Origin: Acutalibacteraceae bacterium
GTDB taxonomy: Bacteria > Bacillota > Clostridia > Oscillospirales > Acutalibacteraceae
Direction of reading: 5' to 3'
NCBI GenBank assembly: GCA_045633685.1
Contig: JAZQYU010000057.1
Location: 16,978-80,977 of the forward strand
Length of the DNA stretch: 64,000 nt
Part shown: positions 1 to 14,547 of the stretch, in pieces
Position numbering within the stretch: the first letter of the stretch is position 1
Layout of the letters: each line of letters starts with the position of its first letter
Notes under the pieces: generated by a model
Database searches by the model: none
What the model saw: only the letters and a program-made list of their open reading frames with translations
Told to the model about the DNA's origin: nothing
Made by a program: the position numbers and the translations under genes

Positions 1-420
1 TGCCTTCTCTTTGGCTATGCGATCTTTTTCAAGCTGTTTTGCTTTTTCGCGCTTAGCTTTTTCCTTTTCCTTGCGGGCGCGTTCAAGCTGCTCTGCCTTT
101 TCCTTGGCAATGCGTGCTCTCTCCTGCTCCCTTGCGATACGAGCCTGCTCTTTTTCTTTGGCAAGTATGGCAAGACGCTCTTCGCGTTCTTTGGCAAGGC
201 GTGCCTTTTCTTTTTCTTTGCGGGCACGTTCTTTGGCAAGGGCAGCCTCTTTCTCTTTCTGAGCCTTGAGACGAGCCTTTTCTTTGGCAAGACGCTCTTT
301 TTCCTTGGCTTTTTCGCGGGCAATCCTTGCTTTTTCTCTTGCAATTCTGCGGCGCTCCATTTCCTTTTCGTGAGCAATTTTTGCCTTGATTTTATCTTCG
401 ATAGCCTTCTTGCGTGCATT
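1..420 (-). repeat. Low-complexity coding repeat (K/E/R/A-rich, heptad-like AKEKxR units) inside the edge ORF
   Basis: The DNA is dominated by reiterated cttttc/cttggc/ttgcgggc units. The translation is about 140 aa of almost only K, E, R, A and L. Out-of-frame ORFs 11..262(+) and 15..509(-) in the track are by-products of this repeat. Confidence 0.6.
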
Positions 421-1548
421 TTCCTGAGCCAATGCACGGTCGATAGCCTCTTTGATTCTGTTTTCACCGGCAATCTTCTTGCGGCTGATACGCTTAACCT
501 CATCCACAAAAATTCTCTTGATTTCGATTTCGTTCATATCGTAATCAAGAACAAGCTCTTCTGCCAATCTCTTGAGAAGCTTGGGCTTGATTTTTCTCTG
601 CTTAGCCTTTTTAGCCAAAGCATCCTGAGAAACTGTGTTGTTTTTGAGGAGCATATAGTTGGTTGAAATCATCTTATTAAGATGATCCTTGTATTCATCA
701 CTTACCATTTCGTTGGATTCATGAGCAATGATCTCATAACCTACATCACGGTATGACTGAATGAACTGCCACAATTTGAGGCAAGCACGGAAGTTGGGGT
801 TTTTCTGAATAGCGTTCGTTCTCATAATGGGAGGACGAACAGGTGCACAACCGCGAAGCTCCTTCATAAAGCCTGAATGGGCATATTCATTGATAACCTT
901 TTTAATTCTTTCAATTCTCTGGAAAGCCGAAGCGTTTTCACCGTCGATTGTTGCTGTATCCTCAAGGTCGTTTCCGCCTGACTGAGCAGAAACCTCAAGC
1001 TGATAGTGGATTTTTTCTTTGCCGCGAACAACATCGCTTTCCATTTTAAGCGATGCCATATTTTCATCGTCGGCAAGAGAGAAAAGAGCATCATAACGGA
1101 TGTCGATGAACCTGATAAGGTTCTGCATAAGGGTGTAAACAAATCGGTTTTCATAAACCTCAAAGCTTTCTTCACGGAAAACATTGAGAATTTCGTTGGG
1201 GGTAACTGTGTCACCCTCAACCTTTGCAATCATATTTGTATGCTGGGCAAGATGGCGTACAGATTCTGCCGTAATTTTTCTCGCTCTTTCTATGGGAACA
1301 ATTTCCTCTTCCTGAACGATAAACTTACGGGGAACACGGATGATATTGTCAAGAGGAATAATACAGGCCTCAATTTCTTCAACCCATGTTAAATCTATTT
1401 TCTTTTCGAAATATCTGTTAAACAGGGAGTAGCTGGTCTTACCACGGTCAATAATGTCATCCATTGTTTCATAGAACTGATTATCTGTGGTAAGGGCATC
1501 CATACTCTCTTTATATTCCAAAAATAATTCAAGATATGATTTATCCAT
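1..1548 (-). CDS. Large partner protein of the adjacent McrB-like GTPase. It has an N-terminal globular region (DUF2357/McrC-N-like by recollection) followed by a Lys/Glu/Arg/Ala-rich coiled-coil tail. The C-terminus lies beyond the window.
   Basis: This ORF is not in the supplied track. Reading forward triplets 1-3, 4-6 ... 1546-1548 I find no tta/cta/tca, so the minus frame is open for all 516 codons from ATG (1548-1546, AAAGG just upstream) to the window edge. It starts MDKSYLELFLEYKESMDAL and contains FEVYENRFVYTLMQNLIRFI. At the edge it is still reading AKEKARLKAQKEKEAALAKERARKEKEKARLAKERE. It lies 39 nt downstream of the AAA gene on the same strand. Confidence 0.7.
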   Translation of the reverse strand, partial: MDKSYLELFLEYKESMDALTTDNQFYETMDDIIDRGKTSYSLFNRYFEKKIDLTWVEEIEACIIPLDNIIRVPRKFIVQEEEIVPIERARKITAESVRHLAQHTNMIAKVEGDTVTPNEILNVFREESFEVYENRFVYTLMQNLIRFIDIRYDALFSLADDENMASLKMESDVVRGKEKIHYQLEVSAQSGGNDLEDTATIDGENASAFQRIERIKKVINEYAHSGFMKELRGCAPVRPPIMRTNAIQKNPNFRACLKLWQFIQSYRDVGYEIIAHESNEMVSDEYKDHLNKMISTNYMLLKNNTVSQDALAKKAKQRKIKPKLLKRLAEELVLDYDMNEIEIKRIFVDEVKRISRKKIAGENRIKEAIDRALAQENARKKAIEDKIKAKIAHEKEMERRRIAREKARIAREKAKEKERLAKEKARLKAQKEKEAALAKERARKEKEKARLAKEREERLAILAKEKEQARIAREQERARIAKEKAEQLERARKEKEKAKREKAKQLEKDRIAKEKA

Positions 1549-1587
1549 CTGACCTTTTGCCCCTTTGCGGTTAATTTACTAAGGCTT

Positions 1588-3141
1588 TTACATAAGCTTC
1601 TGGAGTCTGAGAAGATATTCCTTAGATTCCATCATATTTGACTTACCGAAATGCTTGTTGAGGTAAGTGATAAGTCCGTCAATTTCATCGCGGATGAATG
1701 AAAGGTTCAAGCTTTCAAACTTACGGAGAATCTTGTGGCAAAGAACGAAGTCGATGCCATCGATTTCAGTTCCGCCGCAGCCAACATAAGCAGGAACAAA
1801 TTCCTTGAGCTGCTTAACGATACGGTTACCGAAAGCAAGACGGAAATGTTCGATAACATAGTCATCAAGCTCTTCAATCTTACGGAGGTTTTCGTCTGAA
1901 ACCTTATGGATTTCCTGACATTCTTTAAACATAGCTTCAAGATGCTTGTAGCTGAGGGGAAGCCATTCTGTGTAAGGAGCATCAAATGCTTTACCCTTAC
2001 TGTTGATGTCAATGGGAATAGCACGGTCATAAACCTTATCGGAAACGGCGAAAGTAGAGTCGTCGTTGTTGATTGTGCCGATGTACCACATATTTTCGGG
2101 AAGCTTGAGCTTACCGTCGAAAAGATGCTTGGGGTCGGTGGGCCATACGCTGGGAACAAGGGATACAACCCATTCTTCTCTGGTAGGCATCTCGAGGATT
2201 GAAAGAAGCTCCGCGAAGTAATACTCAACACGGGCAATGTTCATTTCGTCGAGAACGGTGATGTAGATTTCTTCTTTATAGGTTGCTTCATACATCTTCT
2301 TGAGAACTTCGGTTTCGTTGAATCTCTTTGTGAATTCGTTGAAGTAACCGAAAATTTCAGTACGGTCACGCCATGAAGGCTGAACTGAAGCAATGATTGC
2401 AGGGTTTCTTAAGAATTTACCCCAAGCGTAAGCAAGTGAGGTTTTACCTGTACCCGAAATACCCTGAAGAATGATAAGTCTTGTGGTTGCAAATGATGCA
2501 AGGAAAAGACGGATAAGCTTGGGCTCATAATAAAGATGAAGCTGTGAGCAAGCGAAATTACGGAATCTGTCAACGATTTCGGGAAGAGTGATTTCGTTAT
2601 CGAAATCGGGAGCAACATAGTTTTCAATCTCGATGTCAACCTGTGTACATTTGTAGAAACGGCTGTAGTCATCGGCTGTCTTGTCAACCTCGTCAGACTT
2701 CTCTTCCTTTTCTTCATTCTTCTTCTCTTCATATTCTTCATAGGGACTTTCACCGGGCTTGAGACCAAGCTGTGAAACCTTCATAGCAAGAATTCTTTCT
2801 TTTTCGGAAGAAAGCTTGATGATTTCACGGTTAAGATTGCCCACTTCATTAAGAAGTTCTTCCTGGTCAACGATTGTCTTGCGTACTCTGACATATTTTT
2901 TAACGAGAATAACAATCAGAATAACGATAACTGCAAGAATTGCAACAGTTGCAACAACTGTGAGAATTGCAATAATCCAATCTACTGCAGTGAAATCGGC
3001 TGAATTTGCCTTAAAAATGTTTATGTAGGCAGGAACATTGAACATATTTACTATGCCCATTCCGATACCCTTGAAAATGCCGAATAAGCCCTGAACAAAG
3101 AACTGATTCAGAAATTCAGATATAAAGGTTGTAACTGTCAT
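1588..3141 (-). CDS. Membrane-anchored McrB-family (AAA_5) GTPase/ATPase with a coiled-coil linker
   Basis: Walker A is LILQGISGTGKTS and Walker B is YITVLDEMNIARVEYYFAELLSILE. IGTINNDDSTFAVSDKVYDRA matches the McrB MNxxDR/NTAD-type box. The N-terminus has a hydrophobic stretch plus a clear TM helix (WIIAILTVVATVAILAVIVILIVILV). This is followed by a coiled-coil (DQEELLNEVGNLNREIIKLSSEKERIL) and an acidic linker. Confidence 0.8.
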   Translation of the reverse strand: MTVTTFISEFLNQFFVQGLFGIFKGIGMGIVNMFNVPAYINIFKANSADFTAVDWIIAILTVVATVAILAVIVILIVILVKKYVRVRKTIVDQEELLNEVGNLNREIIKLSSEKERILAMKVSQLGLKPGESPYEEYEEKKNEEKEEKSDEVDKTADDYSRFYKCTQVDIEIENYVAPDFDNEITLPEIVDRFRNFACSQLHLYYEPKLIRLFLASFATTRLIILQGISGTGKTSLAYAWGKFLRNPAIIASVQPSWRDRTEIFGYFNEFTKRFNETEVLKKMYEATYKEEIYITVLDEMNIARVEYYFAELLSILEMPTREEWVVSLVPSVWPTDPKHLFDGKLKLPENMWYIGTINNDDSTFAVSDKVYDRAIPIDINSKGKAFDAPYTEWLPLSYKHLEAMFKECQEIHKVSDENLRKIEELDDYVIEHFRLAFGNRIVKQLKEFVPAYVGCGGTEIDGIDFVLCHKILRKFESLNLSFIRDEIDGLITYLNKHFGKSNMMESKEYLLRLQKLM

Positions 3142-3185: not shown

Positions 3186-3896
3186 TTAGTCATCTGAACC
3201 GCCGGATTTTTTCTCAGCCTCCTGCTGAGCAAGGTATTCTTCAATAGCCTGGCGCTTAACGTCATCAGAAATTTTCTCGGCCTTTGCTGTCATAAACATT
3301 GCAATAAGCTTATATACCTGCCAGATGAAGAAGAGAGCCAAGGGGATAATTACGCAAATCATAAAGCCGAGCTGGCTCTGAAGGAAATCAAGAGCATTGC
3401 CGAAGCCGCTGATTGTGAGACCTTTGACATAATTTCCGCTTTCATCAACACCCGCGCCGATCTGCTTGGCAACAACATCGTCGGGATAAACCTTCTGGTT
3501 ATCCTCTGTTTCCATAGCGTCACCCTTAGTCACATAGTAGTGAACAGAGCCGTCGTTATAAAGCTGCACATCAAGAATTCTATGGGTATTGAAGCCCCTG
3601 ACTGTGTTACCGGCCGCATCCTGCATAAGGGTATAGAAGGTGATAACATCACCGATTTTAAGCTCCTCCTGGGGAACTTTCACTTCCTTGGCGATGATAA
3701 GGTCACCTTTACCGATTGTGGGACTCATTGAATCTGTCTGAACCGAGAACGGAGTGTAGCCGGCTACATTGCCGATACCTGTTCCTGAGCTCTTTGATGT
3801 GAAGGTCATTACGGTTATAGCGATAGCTACAACGATAAGAATAACCAACAAAACGTCTGAAATAACGCCTAAAATACTTTTACCTTTCTGTTCCAT
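3186..3896 (-). CDS. sipW: Signal peptidase I, SipW (ER/archaeal) type, with a C-terminal TM extension
   Basis: It has an N-terminal TM helix. The catalytic Ser box is QTDSMSPTIGKGDLIIAK, the His box is FNTHRI, and the GD box is VTKGDAMETED. A second TM helix lies near the C-terminus, as in SipW. Confidence 0.85.
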   Translation of the reverse strand: MEQKGKSILGVISDVLLVILIVVAIAITVMTFTSKSSGTGIGNVAGYTPFSVQTDSMSPTIGKGDLIIAKEVKVPQEELKIGDVITFYTLMQDAAGNTVRGFNTHRILDVQLYNDGSVHYYVTKGDAMETEDNQKVYPDDVVAKQIGAGVDESGNYVKGLTISGFGNALDFLQSQLGFMICVIIPLALFFIWQVYKLIAMFMTAKAEKISDDVKRQAIEEYLAQQEAEKKSGGSDD

Positions 3897-3984: not shown

Positions 3985-4064
3985 GGAAAAGAGGAACGGC
4001 GCCTTCCGACGACGCCGTTCCTTAAACGGCGAGGATCCGGCGGAGCAGAGCAACTACTCCGCCG
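3985..4064 (-). terminator. Two consecutive GC-rich hairpins between the secreted-protein gene and sipW (a partial terminator or attenuator)
   Basis: On the minus strand, GGCGGAG..CTCCGCC spans about 4038-4064. It is followed by GGAACGGCG..CGCCGTTCC (3993-4021) and then TCTTTTCCC. Confidence 0.45.
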
Positions 4065-4119: not shown

Positions 4120-5076
4120 TTAGTCGATTGTGAACTTAAGAGCTGCTGTAAGAGATGCACCTGAAACTGAGTTCAAGCAGTCAACGTCCTGACCTTCAAC
4201 CCAGATGTAAACTCTTACTTTTGTGATACCGGCGCTGAGACTAAAAGCCTTAGCTGAAGCATCAGCTGTGTCTGCAATCTGTTTGCAATTGAGCGCAACT
4301 TCGTTACCAGAAGCATTTATAACACCATTTACTGTGTTAAGATTGTTGGCGCCAGCACCTCTGTATAAAGCTTTTGTCTGCAATGCACCGGAAGCAATAC
4401 CAAGAGCTGTGGCATCATCTGAACGATTAACAGAATCAACTTCATAAACAACATTCTTTGTGCCAGCTGCAAATGAATTAAGAGCCTGTGCGGTAGCCGC
4501 ATCAGTACCGATAGCTACTGTTCCCAAAGGAGTAAATGCCACACGGAGAGCTGTGTTGATTTTTGAATTACTCTTGTCAGTAAACACTGAGTCACCGAAT
4601 TTAACAGTCTGGGGCTCTGCGACCTTGAAGAAAAGGTCAAAAGCTACGATTCCGGCTGCATCCTGACTTTCTTTGCTCTGAGTAACAGCTGTAATTGTAG
4701 CTTTAGCTGCGTCATTCAAAGATGCCTTAAAGAAGTTTGCATAACCTGTTGCTGAATCAGCGCCTGCAAAAGCAGATGAAACAGGGATAAGGTCTGCGGG
4801 ATAAAGGTTGTTGTTACCTTCATAAGCATCGTAACGACCTTTTGTGTTGGGGTCTGTGTCGAAAATTTCGTCAACGGAAAGGCTTGCTGTCCATGCAGAT
4901 GCGTTAGCTGAAATCTGAATACCTTCAGGAGATGAAACTGTGAGGTCCATAGAATCAACTGAAGCTTCTTTACTCATGGAGAACCAAGCGAACGTTGAAG
5001 ATGTGAGAACGATAGCTGAAACGATAAGCATAGCAATCGCTGACACAAACGCACGTTTTTTGATTGTCTTTTTCAT
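4120..5076 (-). CDS. Secreted protein with a SipW-dependent-type signal peptide (TasA/camelysin-like cargo, probable major fibre or matrix subunit)
   Basis: The start is taken at ATG 5076 (GGAGGT RBS). The N-terminus MKKTIKKRAFVSAIAMLIVSAIVLTSSTFAWFSM resembles the TasA/CalY signal (GGTFAYFSD). The protein is Ala/Thr/Ser/Asn-rich and has a C-terminal VRVYIWVEGQDVDC motif. Confidence 0.7.
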   Translation of the reverse strand: MKKTIKKRAFVSAIAMLIVSAIVLTSSTFAWFSMSKEASVDSMDLTVSSPEGIQISANASAWTASLSVDEIFDTDPNTKGRYDAYEGNNNLYPADLIPVSSAFAGADSATGYANFFKASLNDAAKATITAVTQSKESQDAAGIVAFDLFFKVAEPQTVKFGDSVFTDKSNSKINTALRVAFTPLGTVAIGTDAATAQALNSFAAGTKNVVYEVDSVNRSDDATALGIASGALQTKALYRGAGANNLNTVNGVINASGNEVALNCKQIADTADASAKAFSLSAGITKVRVYIWVEGQDVDCLNSVSGASLTAALKFTID

Positions 5077-5234: not shown

Positions 5235-6020
5235 CTACGCAGCCTCGCCGCTGTCATCAAGTGTTTCAATGAGCTTTAAGTCCATCGAAAACTTGATCTC
5301 TCCCTCAAGAATATCATCAACACACTCGGGATCATCTCCTTCGAACCAGATCGCAACCGTGTAACGGTCAACTGAACCTGCTTCGAAATTATCGTTAGAA
5401 AATCCGGCTACCTGCCTGTTGCTAACGAAGTTTTTGTCAGCGTACACTTCAAGCACGCTTGTGCTGCCAAGAACCGGCTTTGCAAACACCGTTGACTCGC
5501 CGTTGTGTGTTACCATAACGCGGACTGCTTCATCTGCGCCCTGAGTAACGCTGTTAACATTGAGCTTTGCAGTATAACCTGCATTTTCGGTGCCCGTGTT
5601 CTTAACATAAAATGAATATGTAAAGTAGTACATTCCGTCTTCTGTGAGGAAATTATGAGAACCGTCATAATCATTTATATCTTCCGGAAGAAGCGGGTAT
5701 GTACCCTCTCTCATATTTTCAAACACGCTGCCTTCAAGAATCCTTGCAGGGTTGTCAAAATCCGGCGTTTCGCTGATTGCGATACCTGCGTTGAAGGCGT
5801 CTGCATTTGTTGTAACGGTAAAATTACCTGTGTTTATATATGTTGTGCAAGCAAACAAGCCAAAGAGGAAAAGCAACAATATAATAAGTATAATAGTCAG
5901 AATTCTGATAAGTGCTTCTCTCTTGTTGAGTTTTTTGGAGCTTGTTTTGACCGTGTATTTGCCCATCTTGTCGTTTGTGGCAGATACCGGCTGTGCATCT
6001 TTTTTGTTTTTCTTTGCCAA
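5235..6020 (-). CDS. Membrane-anchored paralog of the secreted protein (a possible anchor or minor subunit)
   Basis: TTG start at 6020 with AAAGGAG 9 nt upstream. It has a K-rich cytoplasmic N-terminus and one TM helix (ILTIILIILLLFLFGLFA). It shares FxFxVKN-like, RV-strand and C-terminal motifs (YTVAIWFEGDDPECVDD) with 4120..5076. Confidence 0.6.
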   Translation of the reverse strand: MAKKNKKDAQPVSATNDKMGKYTVKTSSKKLNKREALIRILTIILIILLLFLFGLFACTTYINTGNFTVTTNADAFNAGIAISETPDFDNPARILEGSVFENMREGTYPLLPEDINDYDGSHNFLTEDGMYYFTYSFYVKNTGTENAGYTAKLNVNSVTQGADEAVRVMVTHNGESTVFAKPVLGSTSVLEVYADKNFVSNRQVAGFSNDNFEAGSVDRYTVAIWFEGDDPECVDDILEGEIKFSMDLKLIETLDDSGEAA

Positions 6021-6037: not shown

Positions 6038-6778
6038 TTATACGATTGATTTCTCGTTTCCGGGTTTGCCGTAAAACGTACCTTTAAGCTGGTCAACACC
6101 AAGCTTTTTAAGAAGCTCTGCTTTTTCAGCGGTGTCAATGCCGTCAACCCTTGTTTCAACCTCAATCTTCTTTGCAAAATCGATAAGACCCTGCACCATA
6201 TTCTGTGTGCGTTCGCTTTCCATAATATCTTCAATCAATGAAGCGTGAATGCCGATATAATCAACTTCATAATGGCTGAGGTTGCTCAATGATGTATATT
6301 CAAGACCCAGATCATCAATTGAAACCTTGAAGCCAAGCTCGCGGCAAGCTTTGATGTTTGCAAGAATCTGTTCTTTGTCAGCTTCAAGAATGCTCTGAGT
6401 GATGTTGAAGCAGAATCTGTCGGGCTTAATGCCGTGCTTGTCGAGGATTTTCATAATCTGAGGCACGAAGTTCTTTTTGCAGATGTGCTTAACGGAAATC
6501 CATACTATAAAGGAATTCACGTCAGCCTCTCTTGCTTCGCAACGCTTGATAACCTCACAGCATTCCTCAATTGCCCACAAATCAAGCTGACAAATCTGAC
6601 TTGACTTCTCTGCAATGGGAATGAAAATATCTGGCAGAATAACACCAACGGTTTTATCGTTGATTCTCATGGAAATTTCATAATCAATTGCCATATTAAG
6701 GTGAATATCAAACACCGGCTGGAAAGAAAGCTCGATCGGTCTGAGTCTTCCTGTTCCGTTGGATTTTTTCTGTTCCAT
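6038..6778 (-). CDS. Stand-alone EAL-domain protein with degenerate catalytic motifs (a candidate c-di-GMP receptor rather than a phosphodiesterase)
   Basis: EAL-fold landmarks are present: YEISMR (the EALxR position), PIAEKS, and SIDDLGLEYTSLSNL (the DDFGTGYSSL position). However, the ExxE position reads NITQS, KID reads GIH, EGVE reads VDGID and QG reads KG. Confidence 0.75.
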   Translation of the reverse strand: MEQKKSNGTGRLRPIELSFQPVFDIHLNMAIDYEISMRINDKTVGVILPDIFIPIAEKSSQICQLDLWAIEECCEVIKRCEAREADVNSFIVWISVKHICKKNFVPQIMKILDKHGIKPDRFCFNITQSILEADKEQILANIKACRELGFKVSIDDLGLEYTSLSNLSHYEVDYIGIHASLIEDIMESERTQNMVQGLIDFAKKIEVETRVDGIDTAEKAELLKKLGVDQLKGTFYGKPGNEKSIV

Positions 6779-7030: not shown

Positions 7031-7149
7031 ATTAAATTATAAATCTTTTTCGGGAATATACGTCACCAAGCAGGTGATTTTTTCTTACTTTGTTCTAAGT
7101 TCATTTTTAGCTTGCGTCCGAATAGGTGCCCTTGCCGTATAAAACATTT

Positions 7150-11910: not shown

Positions 11911-14547
11911 TTATTTGATGGATTCATAAATTCTTTCTCTGCAGTTTTTGTCTGCGTGGAGGAAAAATCCATCCATTCTCTTTGCATAAACCTCATCAGG
12001 CTCACCGTTTCTTTCAACAAGGTCAACGAGGAACTTCACTGCCTCATCACTTGTGTGAGCAAGGGGGCCAAATCCCTCCTCCAACGGAAGGTCAAGCTTA
12101 CGGTAGTCATTCATACCTGCTCTGAACATTTCATCATCAGGCACAAAATACATAAGGGTCTTTTTAAGATACACAAAATCAAAACAGAAGGATGAAAAGT
12201 CGGTAATAAACACCTTATAACTCTTTTCATCAACAGCCTTGTCCGCTACCCTGATGCGCTTTGAATCAAGCTCATAAAGCTCCGCGCAGGAAGCAAGAAT
12301 GGGATGAAGCTTAAAATCAAGATACCAATCGTTCTTTTCAAGCACCTCTTCAAGCTCCTTTGAATGAAGGAAATCATAAGTTTCTTTAAAGAAATTGCTC
12401 TTCTTGAATTTTGCAGGGTTGGCAGAAATTTTTCCTCTGTCGTTATCAACAAGATATTTTCTCCAGGTGGGGGCAAAAAGAATTTTCTTTTCACTCTTGG
12501 CGGCATCAATGTCAATGAAATCGTATCTCGGCATACCTGCAGGGATAAGGTCGCAATCTCTGAAGCCGTAATTCTCGGTCATATTTTTAACCTCAAAAGT
12601 GGTAGAGATAACCTCTCTGTCCACAGCATTGAGCCTGTCGTTGGAATATTTCCAGGGCAAAAATGCGTGAAGAACGCCGTGCTGAAGATATATAACCTGT
12701 GCCTTGAAAAGGTCTGTGTAATATTTCCACACATATGTGGGGAAAGGATTGATATTTTCATGCTCCGCAAAGGCTGTGATCACCTTTTCACTTGAGAGGA
12801 AAAATCTTCTGTGCTTGATTGATCCGAACTTGATAATATATTTTCTCTGCTTGGGTGTGAACAGGTCTTTTCTGTCCATATTGTCGTTAACAACATAGTA
12901 GCGTTCAACACCGTCGTTTTTATCAAAATCGTGAATAAACTGATAATATCCGTTATCTTTATAAACATTTCGGCAATCATAATAAAGCCAGATTCTGCGG
13001 CTCGGGTCAACCTTGTTGGCGCACAAAAATCTCCAACCGAAGGTGCGAGGACGCTTGAGCATAAGAGTTCTCTCAAATTTTTTGGTCGCAGCCTTTTCTG
13101 CTGCCGCAGATGCTTTGAAAGCCACAAAGCCGTTCTGCTGACGCTGGAATTCATATCCGCAACGGAACACCGAAAGACGAGGAACATCTGTTGCAAAGGG
13201 CGCATTCATTATGAATTCAAGCCTTGTGGGTACGCTCTCGTCACCCACTTCAACAGAAAAATATATCGCAGAATATTTTTTATAGTCCCAATCCAGACGT
13301 ACTCTGTGAAATTTGTTGGTTTTGATTTTTGCGTGATAATAATCCCATGCGGAATTTTCTGTTTCAAGCAGAATAGTTTTTGCATCGCTTTCGCCTGAAA
13401 GATGAGCATAAATCTTCACGTCATCTGTAAAAGAAAGAATAGGTGAACGAAGAAATGCATCGATATAAGCCTTCTGCTTGTCCACCTTGAAGCGGCAGAT
13501 AGTAAAAGGAACTGTATTTTCAAAGAAAACAGGCTTGTTTTCTCTGAGAACTGATACACCTGCACAGCCTGCCCGAACACTGAGTTCGTTGTCATATTTG
13601 AGGCCGAGCATATAACTTTTGTGAGGCGGGTCAACCTTGGGGTGACGGCTGATAACCGAATCGTCAACCTTTTTAAGAAGTGCGCAAATGCGTTCAACAG
13701 CCTTGTTGAATTCAGCCTCCTCATAGTGATAAGGAAGAAGAATATCTGAACGGGTTTTCCAGTTGATGTCATTTACATACATTGCCTGGAAATACTGGGG
13801 AACACTTTCACCAAAGGAGTTAAAAAGCTCCTCCCAGAAAGCCATTGTTGTTTCAAAAATATAATAAGCGTAAAAAATTGTGTTGGTAATACTGCCGGGA
13901 TTTTTGGTATAAAGATACTTGGCTCCGGTGCAGTAACCGATTTTCATTTTATCTCTTACAATGTCGATGTTATATTTCTGGTCTTCGTGGCGGAAATTTT
14001 CGGTGGTATCAAAAAGAATGTTATCCTTACCCTTGTTTTTAACGCAGATGTTTACATTGGTCTGTGTAATGTAAACATTCTCGGGGCGGGTAAGGTCATA
14101 AACACCCTGATACTGAAGATATTTATATCTGAAATGGATGCCTTCACTTTGCTTGCCGTTATAAACGGGAACAATTTTGTAGGTGACAATATCCACTTCG
14201 TTTTCGTGCTTATCAAAGAAATCTGCAAGATTCTTCAAGGACTTTTCAGTAAGTTCATCATCGGGATCAAGAAAAACAAAGTACTTGCCCTGCGCGTGCT
14301 GAATACCGAAGTTGCGGGTTTTGGAAAGCCCCTCGTTTTCCTTTGAAAAATATTTGAAGAAATCATACTTCTCGCAAAACTTTTTGCAGATAGCTTCGCT
14401 GTTGTCGGGTGAGCCGTCATTGATAAGCAAAACCTCAAGATCCTTTTTGTCAATAGACTGCTTAACCAATGATTCAAGACAAGCTTCAAGATATTCTTCA
14501 ACATTGTAAATCGGAATAATAACGGAAATTCTGTATTTAAAATCCAT
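11911..14547 (-). CDS. Bifunctional family-2 glycosyltransferase / CDP-glycerol glycerophosphotransferase (TagF-like)
   Basis: The N-terminus ISVIIPIYNVEEYLEACLESLVKQS..LINDGSPD..FLDPDD is a GT2 domain. The C-terminal half (QHGV.., KILFAPTWR, LDFKLHP, ITDFSS) matches TagB/TagF-type teichoic acid polymerases. Confidence 0.85.
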   Translation of the reverse strand: MDFKYRISVIIPIYNVEEYLEACLESLVKQSIDKKDLEVLLINDGSPDNSEAICKKFCEKYDFFKYFSKENEGLSKTRNFGIQHAQGKYFVFLDPDDELTEKSLKNLADFFDKHENEVDIVTYKIVPVYNGKQSEGIHFRYKYLQYQGVYDLTRPENVYITQTNVNICVKNKGKDNILFDTTENFRHEDQKYNIDIVRDKMKIGYCTGAKYLYTKNPGSITNTIFYAYYIFETTMAFWEELFNSFGESVPQYFQAMYVNDINWKTRSDILLPYHYEEAEFNKAVERICALLKKVDDSVISRHPKVDPPHKSYMLGLKYDNELSVRAGCAGVSVLRENKPVFFENTVPFTICRFKVDKQKAYIDAFLRSPILSFTDDVKIYAHLSGESDAKTILLETENSAWDYYHAKIKTNKFHRVRLDWDYKKYSAIYFSVEVGDESVPTRLEFIMNAPFATDVPRLSVFRCGYEFQRQQNGFVAFKASAAAEKAATKKFERTLMLKRPRTFGWRFLCANKVDPSRRIWLYYDCRNVYKDNGYYQFIHDFDKNDGVERYYVVNDNMDRKDLFTPKQRKYIIKFGSIKHRRFFLSSEKVITAFAEHENINPFPTYVWKYYTDLFKAQVIYLQHGVLHAFLPWKYSNDRLNAVDREVISTTFEVKNMTENYGFRDCDLIPAGMPRYDFIDIDAAKSEKKILFAPTWRKYLVDNDRGKISANPAKFKKSNFFKETYDFLHSKELEEVLEKNDWYLDFKLHPILASCAELYELDSKRIRVADKAVDEKSYKVFITDFSSFCFDFVYLKKTLMYFVPDDEMFRAGMNDYRKLDLPLEEGFGPLAHTSDEAVKFLVDLVERNGEPDEVYAKRMDGFFLHADKNCRERIYESIK

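Follow-up and report, generated by a model that had tools for sequence, protein, structure and literature searches.

McrBC is the textbook GTP-dependent restriction enzyme; in the Escherichia coli complex, the DUF2357 portion of McrC enters the ring formed by McrB and stimulates its hydrolysis of GTP. A 64,000-nucleotide (nt) stretch of the genome of an Acutalibacteraceae bacterium (GenBank assembly GCA_045633685.1, contig JAZQYU010000057.1, positions 16,978 to 80,977; hereafter the window, with positions counted from its first letter) carries on its minus strand the gene of an McrB-type GTPase of 517 amino acids (aa), here termed protein A, and that of a DUF2357 partner, protein B, immediately downstream of a gene for a SipW-type signal peptidase. 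What does a restriction-type GTPase do in a secretion locus? Our answer, which we regard as probable and by no means certain, is that A and B form a GTP-driven, membrane-anchored module of the CoCoPALM class that serves a SipW-dependent surface-fibre operon. We base the fibre-assembly proposal on the neighbourhood of A, in which SipW and signal-anchored exported proteins are the only universally conserved neighbours. The architecture of the pair itself is supported by the data presented below as that of an atypical, membrane-tethered McrB-family nucleoside triphosphatase (NTPase) with a DUF2357 partner that lacks a nuclease.

With each GTDB species represented by a single genome, relatives of A occur in 589 or more genomes of Clostridia and gut Bacilli. 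Neighbourhoods were compared in the best 80 loci from these genomes, over 8 kb around A and with neighbouring proteins clustered by BLAST, and the locus counts given below refer to this set. Altogether more than 8000 homologues were found for A and 413 for B, so neither is a chance open reading frame (ORF).

The GTPase and its membrane anchor

Protein A reads as a membrane anchor joined by an acidic linker to a GTPase domain, as laid out here with the basis of each assignment (AF2, AlphaFold2):

1588..3141, minus strand: protein A, membrane-anchored McrB-type AAA+ GTPase of the NxD clade (517 aa)
2902..3141, minus strand: N-terminal hydrophobic, Gly-rich segment of A (aa 1–50) and transmembrane helix (aa 55–80, nt 2902..2979), from hydropathy, conservation and AF2
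2770..2901, minus strand: juxtamembrane helix or coiled-coil of A (aa 81–124), the 'FtsB/FtsL-like' part, from AF2 and conservation
2587..2769, minus strand: acidic linker of A (aa 125–185), net charge -12, largely disordered in the AF2 model
1591..2586, minus strand: AAA+ GTPase domain and C-terminal helical domain of A (aa 186–517), from invariant motifs

The catalytic motifs of A are intact. An initial annotation, made from the letters alone, had quoted GISGTGKT, VLDEMN and GTINNDDS...DRA from the 517-aa protein, and all three are present exactly in that form; they supply Walker A (GISGTGKT), Walker B (DEMN) and the sensor-1 asparagine N358, which is followed by xDD, with R373 completing the set. 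All of these are invariant in the alignments of A. The stretch N358-N-D360-D361 is likewise invariant in 34 homologues, and the pattern N-x-D-[DE]-S-T recurs in nearly all of the 131 representatives (of 150, drawn from 50%-identity clusters) in which the motif region was found. The existence of QDES and RDES forms excludes an NxxD reading for the family. A signature of 'NxD, usually followed by E or D' is what defines the CoCoNuT/CoCoPALM branch of McrB-type GTPases, as described by Bell et al. 2024, eLife 13:RP94800 (PMC11090510).

Placement of the ATPase with McrB rather than MoxR, as initially proposed, was borne out by four comparisons. The McrB equivalog was the top NCBIfam match of A (E = 7.5e-9), the E. 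coli McrB chains were its top and only significant PDB sequence matches (E = 2.7e-7), and hhalign against E. coli McrB returned a probability of 96.7% (E = 4e-10). Foldseek also ranked McrB first (6hz4, E = 1.8e-4) with RavA lower (E = 2.4e-3), which lends weak support, as the query was a low-confidence AF2 model built on a shallow alignment, with a poor AAA+ core and a mean predicted local distance difference test (pLDDT) score of 64. With McrB leading the NCBIfam, PDB sequence and Foldseek matches, membership of A in the MoxR/RavA clade was rejected.

The strong transmembrane helix seen in the initial annotation is real by hydropathy and is conserved across the family. A single strong segment lies at approximately aa 55–80 (Kyte–Doolittle 19-residue maximum, 3.58) and is followed by KKYVRVRK, which places the AAA+ domain and everything else C-terminal of the segment in the cytoplasm. 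Residues 1–50 are moderately hydrophobic and Gly-rich, with helices over residues 2–47 in the AF2 model; conservation of F6, G29, F34 and Y39 reaches 95% or more among 81 sequences and extends even to Bacilli-like homologues. One continuous AF2 helix, residues 52–124, spans the transmembrane segment and the coiled-coil region, and the conserved residues of its juxtamembrane part are E99, L103, E113, K114, I117 and L118 (81 sequences). FtsL and FtsL_2 models match aa 58–133 with E values of 0.03–0.08, below the Pfam and NCBIfam cutoffs. In the linker, pLDDT falls below 50 at residues 120–151 and 156–166. Pfam and NCBIfam scans matched no DNA-binding family in the N-terminus of A.

The nearest relatives of A that lack the transmembrane anchor are longer (550–870 aa) and carry the GTPase domain C-terminally. 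They belong to CoCoNuT-like pairs of an AAA protein and a DUF2357 protein and share 36% identity with A (E = 3e-55, versus 1e-7 for E. coli McrB); the best match of A on a plasmid is such a pair from Deinococcus (AAA protein, 800 aa; DUF2357 protein, 705 aa). Within the anchored family, 158 positions of A are at least 95% identical among 81 sequences, and the identity of the AAA+ domain to that of the window drops with taxonomic distance, from 91% in the closest group to 80%, 73% and then 67%. A is very strongly conserved, far more so than the defence-type McrB relatives found here.

The DUF2357 partner and its charged tail

The gene of B is cut by the edge of the window:

1..1548, minus strand: protein B, DUF2357 or McrC-N-terminal type, without nuclease, cut by the window edge (516 of ~730 aa), from the open frame, Pfam and hhalign
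544..1548, minus strand: globular N-terminal region of B (aa 1–335), with the DUF2357 core at aa 66–157 (nt 1078..1353), from Pfam, conservation and AF2
1..543, minus strand: start of the Lys/Glu/Arg/Ala (K/E/R/A)-rich helical repeat tail of B, the rest lying beyond the window edge, from composition and AF2

The initial annotation had pointed to a minus-strand frame at 1..1548, absent from the ORF track and open for 516 codons to the edge, 39 nt downstream of the 517-aa protein at 1588..3141. Translation confirmed both the frame and its spacing: it opens with an ATG at 1548, preceded by the plausible ribosome-binding site AAGGGG, and has no stop in 516 codons. Its absence from the track follows from the ORF lister, which leaves out ORFs that run off a sequence end. 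The plus-strand ORFs at 11..262, 114..269 and 370..666, rich in Ser, Leu, Ala and Phe, were rejected as genes and are shadow ORFs opposite the low-complexity tail. The missing 3′ part of B was read from three relatives (L001, L002 and L084) with 90–92% nucleotide identity to the window; the first 42 bases of the window had no exact match among the metagenome contigs scanned, and exact look-ups of A and of the exported subunit yielded no record.

The suggestion that the partner resembles DUF2357 and the N-terminal region of McrC proved sound. Pfam DUF2357 matches B above its gathering score (E = 6e-10, aa 66–157, a region that includes FEVYENRF), and the N-terminal domain is the conserved core of B across the family, with W55, E60, H99, Y132–F136 (the YENRF motif, aa 132–136), R151, R211 and W260 among its invariant residues. 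The globular region is predicted by AF2 as a mixed alpha/beta fold (pLDDT 78.5), and hhalign aligned B with the CoCoNuT-type DUF2357 protein of Deinococcus over 222 columns that include the YENR motif (probability 97.6%, E = 3e-12).

No PD-(D/E)xK motif had been seen in the visible part of the partner, and the complete proteins agree. In L002 and L084, B is 730 aa long, with 508 and 509, respectively, of the 516 window residues identical, and in L001 it is 744 aa long; in all three it ends in the K/E/R/A repeat tail and contains no nuclease. Ten diverse homologues of B matched DUF2357 and generic coiled-coil models and no nuclease family, and the precomputed Pfam annotation of 120 homologues contained no nuclease either.

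The tail had been described as a nearly pure K/E/R/A coiled-coil. The composition stands, with 21% K, 19% E, 18% A and 15% R in the part within the window (aa 336–516) and 26% K, 23% E, 20% A and 13% R, at a net charge of +57, in the full tail of the 98%-identical relative (L002:11588-13780). The coiled-coil finds no support in the periodicity: the tail of L002 is built of a 24-residue repeat with a hydrophobic period of 6.0 and has no 3.5-residue signal, so the tail of this clade is a charged predicted helix for which a coiled-coil is not established. AF2 draws it as a single long helix over residues 341–431. The tail differs by clade, being 83–86% K/E/R/A/Q in Acutalibacteraceae, ordinary and coiled-coil-like, with up to 900 residues, in Ruminococcus and Christensenellales, and absent in Bacilli-like lineages, where B is 371 aa long. 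The charges of the two proteins are opposite, +57 on the tail of B versus -12 on the linker of A (aa 125–185), that is, -72 per hexamer. The tail could dock on the linkers of A, on anionic lipid or on nucleic acid.

A putative secretion operon conserved across gut bacteria

Upstream of A, the minus strand of the window carries:

3186..3896, minus strand: SipW-type (archaeal/ER-type) signal peptidase I (TIGR02228)
3992..4022, minus strand: terminator-like hairpin of 12 bp, 8 of them GC, between the 318-aa exported-protein gene and sipW, a consensus match only
4120..5076, minus strand: exported protein of 318 aa with signal motif ...LTSSTFAWFS, a putative major fibre subunit of an unannotated family
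5235..6020, minus strand: exported-subunit paralogue of 261 aa with a K-rich cytoplasmic N-tail and a transmembrane anchor, no AWF motif; a putative membrane-anchored base subunit
6038..6778, minus strand: stand-alone EAL-domain protein (cyclic di-GMP (c-di-GMP) phosphodiesterase family; Pfam EAL, E = 2.6e-50), first gene of the putative operon

The stop of the signal peptidase gene lies 44 nt before the start of A, and that of A 39 nt before the start of B. A and B each have their own ribosome-binding site, no minus-strand terminator-like site occurs among the signal peptidase, A and B genes, and both a promoter-like and a terminator-like site are found upstream of the EAL gene. This layout points to a putative operon in which the A–B pair is co-transcribed with the SipW-type peptidase, the two exported paralogues, the EAL gene and, among close relatives, the gene of a giant surface protein with GLUG repeats. 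The hairpin at 3992..4022 may act as a partial terminator or attenuator; such a layout would give high expression of the subunits and partial read-through into sipW-A-B. The signal peptidase scores 67.9 bits against NCBIfam TIGR02228 (cutoff 51.85), and the Bacillus SipW model matches it with E = 4e-21, below that model's cutoff. Separately, the EAL gene opens the cluster in 31 of the 80 loci, a hint of c-di-GMP control; compared by eye with what we take to be the family consensus, some of its catalytic positions look substituted, with DGID for EGVE and K for a conserved Q, and its activity is uncertain.

The 261-aa and 318-aa proteins fall into one BLAST cluster and have a common C-terminal motif, IW.EG.D..C. 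The family has 681 database matches, of which the 120 homologues inspected are all labelled 'hypothetical' and are without a Pfam domain. In the family alignment, an invariant N-terminal '...TYAWF' is joined by a C-terminal 'RVY.W.EGQD.DC.N', in which W292, E294 and D297 are invariant. The aromatic-rich signal end, '...(T/S)(F/Y)AWF', resembles the signals of TasA and camelysin. We infer the labels 'pilus subunit' and 'TasA-like' for these proteins from this signal motif and from their adjacency to SipW.

The arrangement recurs well beyond the window. SipW lies near A in 78–79 of the 80 loci (119 copies in all), and B directly downstream of A in 72–74, with at least four of the other loci ending at contig ends. 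Members of the exported paralogue family, 160 proteins in total, were found in 57 loci and proteins with AWF-type signals in 65, so that the count of loci with such exported proteins is 57–65. Among the neighbours within 8 kb in the 80 loci, there was no conserved nuclease or helicase family, and Pfam scans of the neighbours returned EAL, ABC and GLUG only. The transmembrane anchor and the SipW neighbour are kept across the family, and the initial view of the pair as atypical by the standard of ordinary McrBC is upheld. Carriers comprise Acutalibacteraceae, Oscillospiraceae, Ruminococcus, Christensenellales and reduced-genome Bacilli, together with Mycoplasmatota-labelled and Erysipelotrichaceae metagenome-assembled genomes (MAGs). 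In the window the cluster is flanked by housekeeping genes, which encode a GFO/IDH/MocA oxidoreductase, YchF, AspRS and sugar kinases, and the plasmid and phage collections contained no full-length relative. Given these flanks, the conservation of A, the fall of its identity with taxonomic distance and the lack of a full-length plasmid or phage relative, A appears to be a conserved gene of the chromosome and not a mobile one.

Local variants of the locus were also seen. In four loci from Bacilli-, Mycoplasmatota- and Erysipelotrichaceae-labelled MAGs (L061, L063, L064 and L079) the cluster is rearranged: a giant protein, SipW and three small signal-anchored proteins ('...SSYAKY' or 'STYTSYES') form its upstream part, a soluble protein of ~325–350 aa without a family match stands directly upstream of A, and after A come a B that lacks the tail (371 aa), a second SipW that overlaps the end of B, and more AWF proteins. 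Between the GFO/IDH/MocA and EAL genes, L001, L002 and L084 hold a GntR regulator, an ABC ATPase and a 741-aa permease (~3.7 kb); the window is without this module at ~7069..7148, indicating an insertion or deletion at that junction. Elsewhere in the window, 11911..14547 (minus strand) encodes an 878-aa protein in which a family-2 glycosyltransferase is fused to a CDP-glycerol glycerophosphotransferase (teichoic-acid-type), an enzyme of ordinary cell-wall polymer biosynthesis. The whole 64-kb window gave no tRNA and no Rfam match.

A proposed role and its alternatives

By homology with McrBC, A would form a hexameric GTPase ring, and the DUF2357 domain of B would bind in or on this ring and stimulate GTP hydrolysis. 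The ring would hang below the membrane on six helices, with the six conserved N-terminal segments in or beyond the membrane, and the strongly basic, long helical tail of B stands where McrC has its nuclease. GTP hydrolysis by the A6–B complex might then be passed via the helix and transmembrane bundle to the extracellular side of the membrane, where it would act as a gate or driver as signal-anchored fibre subunits are processed, released or polymerised. A6–B would in this way serve as the platform on which a surface fibre or pilus is assembled, or as a checkpoint in its assembly.

Several points weigh against this proposal. The role in fibre assembly is drawn wholly from synteny. The exported proteins had no match in Pfam (including TasA/camelysin, PF12389), in NCBIfam or in PDB by phmmer, nor did the family profile against PDB or 29 members searched singly, and they have no detectable similarity to TasA, BsaA, AbpA or camelysin. 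To our knowledge, the TasA-type fibres that have been characterised polymerise outside the cell without an NTPase, which leaves the need for a GTPase unexplained. On the side of the pair, B and E. coli McrC have no detectable similarity by hhalign (probability 0.15%), and the link of B to McrC runs only via DUF2357 and the CoCoNuT-type relatives. Foldseek of the B model against PDB gave nothing meaningful (best E = 0.05, TM-score below 0.1), and the B profile against PDB sequences gave coiled-coil noise only. The structure predicted for A is of low quality in its AAA+ core (pLDDT 64), and the FtsB homology ascribed to CoCoPALM anchors reached only E = 0.03–0.08 for A, which is not significant.

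In its most far-reaching form, which we consider possible and rather doubtful, the proposal would make A–B the motor of an unrecognised NTP-dependent Gram-positive surface-fibre pathway, set apart from those of sortase pili and type IV pili and from the spontaneous assembly of TasA-type fibres. A restriction-derived membrane GTPase ring would there couple SipW cleavage to the extraction and polymerisation, or the retraction, of orphan subunits, in hundreds of species of gut Clostridia and reduced-genome Bacilli.

The alternative that survives best places the pair in the service of a giant surface protein, for whose export, folding or anchoring it would act, with SipW as the processing peptidase. 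A GLUG-repeat secreted giant of more than 3000 aa (more than 3265 aa in L084) follows B directly in all close relatives, 52 of the 80 loci have an ORF of 900 aa or more on the same strand within 8 kb, and the giants carry GLUG or Peptidase_M26_N-type repeats. The giants, however, split into unrelated clusters (21 and 13 loci) and are less constant than SipW and the small exported family; their position varies, after B in Acutalibacteraceae versus first gene in Bacilli-like loci, and their signals are of the ordinary Sec type without the AWF motif. We regard this alternative as unlikely.

Less likely still is a role in anti-phage or anti-plasmid defence, of the type IV restriction or CoCoNuT-like kind, in which a non-McrC effector would act, for example, by membrane disruption or abortive infection at the pilus base. 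The base of a pilus is a common phage receptor. The ancestry of the pair lies with McrBC, the GTPase domain has its closest relatives among CoCoNuT-like defence candidates, and the PADLOC candidate model PDC-M26A matches A with E = 5e-36 (we found no mention of PDC-M26 in the literature searched). One source annotates a homologue of B as a 'predicted component of viral defense system (DUF524 family)', and the +57 tail could bind nucleic acid. Against these points, neither B nor the conserved neighbours contain a nuclease or other effector domain, and PADLOC has no match for B. The flanks are housekeeping genes rather than a defence island, the identity of A falls as taxonomic distance grows and is higher than is usual in a defence gene, plasmids and phages yielded no full-length copy, and synteny with secretion and fibre genes spans two bacterial classes. 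The initial annotation had set such a defence module beside an NTPase machine tied to the SipW operon; with no nuclease, housekeeping flanks, no plasmid or phage copy and high conservation, it is the second of these readings that is favoured and the first that is not. An envelope or cell-division machine with an FtsB/FtsL-like anchor and ZapB-like coiled-coils, in operon with SipW for regulation only, is about as improbable: the FtsL/FtsL_2 matches at aa 58–133 of A and those of some B tails to ZapB and crescentin coiled-coil models are weak, and although Bell et al. (PMC11090510) call the anchor FtsB-homologous, all matches are below threshold and typical of any transmembrane-plus-coiled-coil segment, no division or cell-wall gene is conserved nearby in the 80 loci, and SipW and the exported proteins are the only neighbours universally conserved.

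The GTPase and activator core of McrBC is found here without its DNA-binding and nuclease parts and tethered to the membrane; gut Firmicutes, in 589 or more species-level genomes, have it fixed in a putative operon of exported surface proteins. If the surface-fibre proposal is true, a motor from a defence system has clearly been taken over for a cell-surface function, and gut bacteria that are abundant and mostly uncultured would have a fibre or adhesion apparatus that awaits characterisation. CoCoPALM has already been named and outlined in print (PMC11090510); the window adds one more member, without the 3′ end of the partner gene, and is of limited practical value in that respect. A genetic or structural study of one CoCoPALM member would open the field.

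Among known systems, E. coli McrBC (EcoKMcrBC, PDB 6HZ4 and 6UT6) is like the locus in its AAA+ GTPase motifs, in its B-then-C gene order and in having a DUF2357-type partner. In contrast to McrBC, a transmembrane anchor replaces the DNA-binding N-domain in A, the family-level signature is NxD and not NxxD, the partner has no PD-(D/E)xK motif and no direct similarity to McrC, and no restriction-modification genes are linked. Canonical McrBC type IV restriction was rejected for want of an McrC nuclease and of an N-terminal modified-base reader.

CoCoNuT systems (CnuB/CnuC, PMC11090510) have the closest GTPase domain (~36–40% identity, with NxD[DE]ST), a DUF2357 region that aligns with that of B, and long helical extensions. 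The locus, unlike these, is without HEPN, PD-(D/E)xK, PLD or another nuclease and without the CnuH helicase or CnuE effector; it has a transmembrane anchor, and it is chromosomal and syntenic with secretion genes rather than placed in defence islands. Identity with CoCoNuT was rejected, as the neighbours within 8 kb in the 80 loci include no conserved nuclease or helicase family.

With tapA-sipW-tasA of Bacillus subtilis and sipW-bsaABC of Clostridium perfringens, the locus has in common a dedicated SipW-type peptidase encoded with paralogous exported proteins, and the membrane-retained paralogue of the window could be the anchor. No McrB-type or dedicated NTPase is mentioned in the papers searched, which deal with TasA, BsaA, archaeal bundling pili and tafi.

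Closest of all is the CoCoPALM clade, which section 7 of Bell et al. names in three sentences and defers to a future paper, and for which we found no follow-up in the literature. It is described there as a GTPase fused to an FtsB-like transmembrane/coiled-coil domain, associated with the signal peptidase family and adjoined by an McrC homologue, usually with coiled-coil extensions on both proteins (PMC11090510). The locus has the NxD GTPase, the anchor of transmembrane segment and helix, the adjoining DUF2357 partner with a helical extension, and the signal peptidase gene; on these sequence features it belongs to the CoCoPALM class, and nothing contradicts membership. Beyond the published description, it adds the tail of B, a +57 K/E/R/A repeat with 6- and 24-residue periods that is absent in the Bacilli-like clade, and the company of an exported family marked by 'TYAWF...W.EG.D..C', often with an EAL gene and a giant GLUG protein.

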